Virus record (IMG/VR): IMGVR_UViG_3300046804_003398
From: a virus
Taxonomy: Duplodnaviria; Caudoviricetes
DNA length: 64,000 nucleotides
Direction: 5' to 3' (one strand)
A program made the translations under genes and the position numbers. The notes under the pieces are model-generated. The model had not been told where the DNA came from and ran no database searches. It saw only the letters and a list, made by a program, of their open reading frames with translations. This document shows, piece by piece, positions 7,560-7,852 of the stretch (within the stretch, counting starts at the first letter, position 1; each line of letters begins with the position of its first letter).

Positions 7560-7852
7560 ATAGTGGCGGAACAACAATTAGTTTAGTTGTAACGCACAAT
7601 ATATGGCGTTGAAAAACGTTGTATATTGGTTGGAGTAAGAATCATGGAGGGTAAGTCTATGGAGAATTTGAGGTCGTTCAACCCCAAATTTGAGCGTATC
7701 GGGATCGTAGCTAAAATATATGATAAATCGTAGCCCGTTGTGGGGAAAACAAAATCCCATCAGTCATCAACACAAGGAGTAATTAACCGTGTGGATTGTG
7801 GATGAATAACCAGTCGTGATTCTGAAACTTGGAGGTAATCATTAGTCCTCCC
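7560..7852 (+). ncRNA. ~290-nt multi-hairpin ncRNA with 3' pseudoknot (GOLLD/ROOL-like context)
   Basis: Serial stems ACAAC/GTTGT, CAATATA/TATATTG with GCGTT-GAAA-AACGT, CATGGA/TCTATG, AATTTG/CAAATT, CGGG/CCCG; GGAGG/CCTCC loop AATCAT pairs with GTGATT at 7816; no credible ORF; sits between a promoter and tRNAs. Confidence 0.6.

Follow-up and report, generated by a model that had tools for sequence, protein, structure and literature searches.

The RNAs GOLLD and ROOL occur near the tRNA islands of phages and form RNA-only nanocages; GOLLD RNAs are in many cases longer than 800 nt (PMC12286853). Another structured RNA, manA (RF01745), is classed by Rfam as cis-regulatory and was described as a riboswitch candidate by Weinberg et al. 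in 2010 (PMC2864571). An unreviewed preprint of 2026 reports that manA RNAs assemble in vitro into pentamer-based decamers and into a 60-mer icosahedral cage via kissing loops (10.64898/2026.07.01.735769). Here we describe a conserved RNA of about 300 nt located in phage tRNA arrays and compare it with these systems.

The RNA lies on the plus strand of a 64,000-nt stretch of viral DNA (IMG/VR record IMGVR_UViG_3300046804_003398), hereafter the window. It is compact, clamped at its ends by the terminal helix P1 and co-oriented with the tRNA genes of the array that contains it (Table 1). The first-pass annotation of the window had placed an ornate, discrete non-coding RNA in this array at 7560-7852, close to the limits found here. 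The structure is supported by covariation (see below), tRNA genes are found on both sides, and the tRNAs said to follow the RNA proved to be two non-canonical tRNA-like genes and then tRNA-Met. No tRNA was called over some 300 nt between the T-rich string GTTCTTTGTAAG and tRNA-Met. At gathering thresholds, Rfam 15 returned only tRNAs from the window, in agreement with the earlier surmise that the RNA is absent from current family libraries.

Table 1. Features of the RNA locus and of its comparative secondary structure (window coordinates).
Feature	Position	Strand	Evidence or remark
tRNA-Leu(UAA)	7397-7483	+	ARAGORN; directly upstream of the RNA
Sigma-70-type promoter	TTGACA 7499-7504; TATACT 7521-7526	+	16-nt spacer; score 11/12
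Degenerate boxA-like string GTTCTTTGTAAG	7540-7551	+	8/12 matches to GTTCTTTAACAA
Structured RNA	7558-7857	+	From 5' to 3' strand of P1; model R1, 320 bits; covariation
P1	7558-7563 / 7852-7857	+	Double changes in 4/6 pairs
P2 outer	7564-7568 / 7593-7598	+	Rfam alignment, covariation
P2 internal loop	GAACAA 7569-7574 opposite UAA 7590-7592	+	manA-like 5' core
P2 inner	7574-7578 / 7586-7590	+	Hairpin; whole P2 spans 7564-7598
P3	7599-7610 / 7615-7626	+	12-13 bp; GAAA tetraloop 7611-7614
Central domain	7638-7823	+	Closed by P4 and P5; holds P6-P10
P4	7638-7652 / 7809-7823	+	Covaries
Second invariant loop	GAAUAA 7804-7809 opposite UAA 7652-7654	+	Between P4 and P5
P5	7655-7659 / 7799-7803	+	
P6	7664-7674 / 7681-7691	+	
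P7	7700-7703 / 7734-7737	+	
P8	7740-7744 / 7756-7760	+	
P9	7761-7765 / 7794-7798	+	
P10	7771-7777 / 7787-7793	+	
P11	7831-7835 / 7847-7851	+	5 bp; invariant 11-nt loop UAAUCAUUAGU; abuts 3' strand of P1; manA-like 3' core
tRNA-like gene	7867-7935	+	ARAGORN, relaxed threshold only; 6-nt "anticodon" loop AUUCCA; 3' UCCA end
Second tRNA-like gene, same kind	7944-8016	+	ARAGORN, relaxed threshold only
tRNA-Met(CAU), next canonical tRNA	8024-8100	+	ARAGORN, Rfam

Homologues were collected with a 21-base core pattern, composed of positions common to the window and the manA consensus, with which IMG/VR was scanned at varied spacings. The scan returned 107 loci at a spacing of 120-150 nt, one at 151-181 nt and 18 at 245-275 nt; the bins 182-212, 215-244 and 276-306 nt gave none. 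The two populated bins thus define two size classes, and the empty ones serve as an empirical control for chance matches. At the long spacing (245-275 nt), a scan of metagenomes gave 48 loci, nine of which (seven distinct) matched the pattern only. The true set comprises 45 distinct sequences from viral and metagenome contigs, falling into about ten clades whose identity to the window ranges from about 97% down to under 40%. A covariance model, R1, built from the trimmed alignment of these long-form homologues scores true members at 117-326 bits and rejects all nine pattern-only loci. On two whole viral records R1 found one copy apiece; a second copy was seen only in the metagenome contig L062 (2555-2841 and 4682-4972, minus strand), where it is divergent (207 bits) and has its P11 loop changed to UAGUCAGGAGU. 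Source contigs reach 296 kb, which points to large phages, and one record of 173 kb is rated 73% complete. Neither the RNA nor 20 kb of the window gave a match by blastn or megablast against 50,697 phage records, and tblastn of the window's helicase against cultured-phage records was likewise negative; the lineage thus appears uncharacterised. An exact 23-mer of the 3' hairpin found no match in IMG/VR. A pattern scan of about 186,000 representative prokaryote genomes yielded no member; its sole match, a Croceitalea locus, reached only 12 bits with R1 and was discarded as spurious.

The folding energy of the single sequence is only modestly low (z = -2.5 against shuffles), and the case for a structure therefore rests on comparative data. 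RNAalifold, applied to a plain MAFFT alignment, gave 72 pairs, 45 of them with compensatory double changes. In the R1 alignment, 97.6% of cells are paired and double changes occur in 46 of 65 pairs, as compared to 16.5±1.9 in shuffled alignments (none of 500 reaching the observed value) and to 14-21 when partners were slid by one to three columns. The R1 alignment is fitted to the model and contains one spurious 13-bit row, but the independent MAFFT result agrees with it. The first-pass annotation had made its reading depend in part on covariation among homologues, and these figures supply that covariation. The structure has 12-13 covariation-supported helices, and its seven terminal hairpins (P2b, P3, P6, P7, P8, P10 and P11) agree with an earlier count of at least seven. 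P3 is a hairpin in all clades, with many compensatory variants. A candidate outer helix (7628-7631/7826-7829) is 97% pairable and scarcely varies. The loop between P4 and P5 means that the hallmark GAAnAA/UAA loop of manA occurs twice; we take this loop to resemble the UAA/GAN tertiary motif. P11 was also considered as a terminator and rejected: its stem and loop were not called by the terminator scan, and the start of its tail is the covarying strand of P1. The locus thus specifies a conserved RNA with 12-13 covarying helices closed by P1, rather than a protein gene.

One structural element proposed at first pass did not hold. In the window, GUGAUU (7816-7821) is complementary to AAUCAU (7837-7842), and the two had been paired in a terminal pseudoknot. 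This pseudoknot is unsupported because the bases at 7816-7821 form the 3' strand of the covarying, nested P4 (where the pair C7643-G7818 is co-deleted in 15 sequences and replaced by U-A in three), because the P11 hairpin loop is invariant, and because the central G-C of the proposed pairing is lost in 21 of 43 sequences. The P11 loop AUCAU can instead be set against the P7 loop AUGAU (7720-7724), with 98.6% of cells pairable. Both sides of such loop contacts are invariant and covariation is blind to them, so that they stand as candidates only.

At permissive Rfam thresholds, manA was the sole non-tRNA match in the region. The window aligns to all 192 positions of RF01745 over 7548-7861, scoring 19.2 bits (E 0.006 for 351 nt), as compared to a gathering score of 55.2. 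Matched on the 5' side are the closing helix with its UG linker, then a short stem with GAAnAA, and the hairpin and UAA that follow; on the 3' side, UUG precedes a hairpin of 5 bp (11-nt loop), and the closing helix completes the match. Between the two ends, the sequence stays unaligned in insertions of 58, 49 and 111 nt. In searches of 50-70 kb across all families, relatives scored 31 (L001), 31.1 (L035) and 28.4 bits (L061), with E values of 3e-4 to 2e-3, and 22 (L009, E 0.14) and 20.1 bits (L033, E 0.69). Canonical manA controls gave 162 bits (L114) and 96.6 bits (Synechococcus phage S-CREM1). By Rfam's own criterion the RNA is thus not a member of manA, since the window and its relatives (20-31 bits) all fall below the gathering score. 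Seven decoys in which the 21 bases occur at identical spacing gave no RF01745 match at E<=10. The pattern alone thus fails to explain the scores, which are accounted for by the helices and by further conserved bases. Within the 5' core (P1, UG, P2, GAAnAA, hairpin, UAA) the bases are invariant in 43 homologues and the helices covary. In the 3' core, UUG is followed by the 5-bp hairpin, whose 11-nt loop reads UAnnCAnUAnU and which abuts the 3' strand of P1. All these elements are found in canonical manA, and both forms are carried by aquatic phages.

The two forms differ in the middle. Canonical manA is about 190 nt long, and the centre of the long form exceeds that of manA by some 110 nt. In the long form, a five-helix domain comes after a long hairpin, whereas canonical manA has a 6-bp stem around three hairpins and then a long, interrupted hairpin, an arrangement absent from the comparative structure. 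The second GAAnAA/UAA loop is a feature of the long form and not of canonical manA. Conversely, the loops of the last two hairpins of canonical manA (L8/L9) are complementary (UACUGUA/UACAGUA in the consensus, UGUCA/UGACA in S-CREM1), and no clear counterpart is recognisable in the long form, in which the best partner for the P11 loop is AUGAU of the P7 loop. R1 scored canonical manA loci at 15-33 bits, but these loci had been preselected by the shared pattern and are not an independent test. With filters off, the S-CREM1 manA, which lacks the pattern, scored 6.8 bits (E 0.41) and was not recovered.

From the sequence comparison, the core is probably truly kin to manA. We put at roughly 0.6 the probability of our preferred reading as a whole, namely, that the locus gives rise to a stable structured RNA that acts in trans, comes from a large, uncultured lineage of phages and is a relative of manA expanded to about 300 nt. 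The strongest competitor, which we nonetheless consider rather unlikely, is an independent new family whose likeness to manA reflects convergence on common tertiary motifs, or chance. The RF01745 scores of 19-31 bits, a central two thirds that is not collinear with manA, and the failure of R1 to find the S-CREM1 RNA all speak for it. Moreover, UAA/GAN-type loops recur in unrelated RNAs. Convergence would, however, have to bring together several independent features in the same order (UG linker, GAAnAA/UAA, UUG, 5-bp stem with 11-nt loop), along with the loop residues U1, A2, A6, A9 and U11 and the zero linker to P1. It also sits poorly with the decoys, which carry the same 21 bases and score nothing, with the occurrence of both forms in aquatic phages, and with the finding that canonical manA, too, can sit inside a tRNA array. 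The latter is the case in S-CREM1 (OP535465; L019), where manA (5216-5430) is butt-jointed between tRNA-Leu and tRNA-Asn, which shows that the niche is not foreign to the manA family. In the same phage, wcaG is found just before tRNA-Met and abiF before tRNA-Gly. Such placement fits processed non-coding RNAs better than 5' UTR elements. As an aside, manA owes its name to an association with mannose-metabolism genes. Sugar-nucleotide genes (nucleotidyl transferase, NAD-dependent epimerase/dehydratase, GDP-mannose 4,6-dehydratase) are present in the window at 35294-37964 and 51280-52419 (plus strand), tens of kb from the RNA, and no link is implied.

Association with tRNA genes sets the long form apart: a tRNA lies on the same strand within 500 nt at 53 of 58 long-form loci, as opposed to 7 of 107 matches of canonical length. 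The RNA of most homologues typically begins 26 nt after tRNA-Leu(UAA), and one or two conserved tRNA-like genes nearly always follow it. In the divergent clades L001, L035 and L061, the RNA is upstream of phage protein genes and not in tRNA arrays. The tRNA-like genes of the window were called neither by ARAGORN at default settings nor by the Rfam tRNA model. Both combine an acceptor stem of 7 bp and an anticodon stem of 5 bp, the latter with a 6-nt loop (AUUCCA or AUUCCU), and UCCA is encoded at the 3' end; their T-loops lack the usual TTC and their D-loops lack GG. Homologues are present in most of the loci L002-L066, and from one locus to another compensatory changes are seen in both the acceptor and the anticodon stem. 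Given the 6-nt loop, these genes may not decode.

The promoter assigned to the RNA by the earlier annotation was recovered as the top promoter-like site across positions 4000-8400. The promoter module is identical within the clade of the window and recurs in a second clade (L009/L027). An inverted repeat, GTATAC-N6-GTATAC (7520-7537, plus strand), overlaps both the -10 hexamer and the site where transcription is predicted to start, and its counterpart in the same position of the L009/L027 clade reads ATATAC-N6-GTATAT. A dimeric regulator might use the repeat as its operator.

The claim of a boxA upstream of the RNA needs qualification: the string in the window is degenerate and can also join a small hairpin (7535-7549), but an exact proteobacterial-type boxA, TTCTTTAACAA, is present in 45 of 56 homologues at a fixed offset, starting 19 nt before the AGUG core. 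An upstream boxA is thus usual for the long form, unlike canonical manA. In the clade of the window, decay of the RNA-adjacent boxA is accompanied by gain of a promoter; promoter and boxA coexist in the L009/L027 clade. Exact boxA sequences number 83 on the array strand and three on the other strand across the related loci L002-L067. Elsewhere in the window, an exact copy of GTTCTTTAACAA (4925-4936, plus strand) is found just before the tRNA-Met at 4944, and a copy with two mismatches (4739-4750) precedes the tRNA-Met at 4754. Judging from these positions, signals for antitermination appear to be spread along the tRNA array as a whole. The homologues carry GTTCTTTAACAATTTA, one base different from GCTCTTTAACAATTTA, which we take to be the boxA of the E. 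coli rrn operons. The element lies upstream of an untranslated structured RNA in both settings, which differ in that one is a phage tRNA array, with a degenerate copy in the window, and the other an rRNA operon. The E. coli boxA string ctgctctttaacaatttatca is present in an oligonucleotide (PMC2176067). Extrapolating from the rrn match, we propose that antitermination may be Nus-dependent.

Other features of these arrays were recorded in passing. Unannotated spacers of 110-220 nt separate tRNA genes of the window at 4531-4753, 4832-4943 and 5129-5308 (plus strand). Part of the segment 4600-4670 recurs after tRNA-Glu in L027, and at the equivalent spot L004 has a sub-threshold match to wcaG (30.2 bits; gathering score 42). 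Additional structured RNAs may be present in the array. Group I introns scoring above threshold (71-75 bits) are located inside the tRNA arrays of related phages, at 518-710 of L005 and 8293-8478 of L002; the long manA-like RNA follows a few hundred nt downstream. The array of the window is interrupted by two adjacent ORFs on the minus strand (5545-6429 and 6433-7320; 294 and 295 aa), neither with a PHROG match and the 295-aa protein without an IMG/VR relative by peptide pattern. The contig L035, in which a divergent long form lies upstream of an ORF, has an above-threshold CRISPR-DR7 match at 201-237 (42.4 bits).

A cis-acting role was weighed against this background. The RNA would be a riboswitch or leader that senses a ligand and controls read-through into the tRNA-like genes and tRNA-Met by means of its 3' hairpin and a U-rich stretch acting as a conditional terminator. 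We regard this as improbable. The reading draws on the Rfam class of manA and its standing as a riboswitch candidate (PMC2864571), on the sequence CUAUUUUAUUUU that follows the 3' hairpin in the clade of the window, and on the position of the divergent L001, L035 and L061 RNAs upstream of ORFs. The first part of the U-rich tract, however, is the 3' strand of P1, and other clades read UAUUUGAAUUU at this point, with no conserved U-run. The hairpin has just 5 bp and an 11-nt loop, and no terminator was called there. Translational control can be set aside, since what lies downstream is tRNA genes. The sole candidate for an alternative pairing, the pseudoknot, failed, and neither the terminator scan nor the covariation analysis revealed an expression platform (terminator, anti-terminator or pairing that sequesters a ribosome binding site) overlapping the RNA. 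Finally, at 300 nt and 12 helices, the RNA is far larger than known aptamers.

The first-pass annotation had favoured a miniature GOLLD or ROOL, which now seems very improbable. These RNAs share the niche in phage tRNA islands (PMC12286853), and they and the long form alike are ornate, multi-helix RNAs of phages or prophages. Location in a tRNA island is a matter of context, however, and does not by itself confer membership. The models of GOLLD (RF01998) and ROOL (RF03087) gave no match at E<=10 on either strand of 7300-8150 or 7520-7870, where the only similarity detected was to manA. The secondary structures are unrelated, and the pseudoknot invoked as a structural link to GOLLD and ROOL is unsupported (see above). 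Size also differs, the RNA having 300 nt and many GOLLD RNAs more than 800. ROOL, too, is much longer than 300 nt. Least credible of all is a small protein made from the 35-aa ORF at 7626-7733 or from its 29-aa ATG form starting at 7644: the ORF is present and has an SD-like GGAG 8 nt upstream of 7644, but the aligned frame measures 1, 10, 14, 25, 26, 29 or 46 aa, its start codon is lost in several clades, and substitutions are compensatory in helices, not synonymous.

The biogenesis of the RNA may be envisaged as follows. It would be transcribed together with the tRNAs, from its own sigma-70 promoter in the window and by read-through from tRNA-Leu elsewhere. The boxA elements would recruit antitermination factors of the NusB/NusE type, allowing the long untranslated transcript to escape Rho. 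The RNA would then be freed by the enzymes responsible for trimming the tRNA and tRNA-like genes on either side, 5' processing of the tRNA-like gene at 7867-7935 setting its 3' end, and the P1 clamp would presumably shield the ends of the product. More speculatively, the RNA might serve the tRNA or translation programme of the phage, a role that has been proposed for the GOLLD and ROOL cages. Although homology to these RNAs fails, the analogy may hold at the level of function. By analogy with the behaviour of canonical manA in vitro, the long form might use its invariant loops to self-assemble into a closed homo-oligomer. This suggestion is more speculative, and so are the contacts that could be involved, the P11 loop AUCAU with the P7 loop AUGAU, and the palindromic P10 loop UAAUUA.

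Since 2010, manA has remained an orphan riboswitch candidate. What is new here is a distinct size class of about 300 nt with the same core. The niche that it has in common with GOLLD and ROOL points to a trans-acting role linked to tRNAs or translation and argues against cis regulation, so that the "cis-reg" label on phage manA annotations merits re-examination. A third RNA family reported to form cages is thereby linked to phage tRNA arrays, and the cis-regulatory reading of manA is weakened. The long form also offers structural studies a new, larger construct and covariation analysis a set of 45 natural variants, and it leads to a model of processing and antitermination that can be tested. 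The boldest extension of our reading, a doubtful one at present, is that, next to GOLLD and ROOL, the long form represents a third, independently evolved class of self-assembling RNA cages tied to phage tRNA arrays. On this view, boxA antitermination would govern its joint transcription with tRNA-like partners that do not decode, tRNA-processing enzymes would excise it, and once assembled it would, during infection, target tRNAs or the translation apparatus. If true, natural RNA cages would generally be linked to tRNA islands, which would offer a handle on their function.
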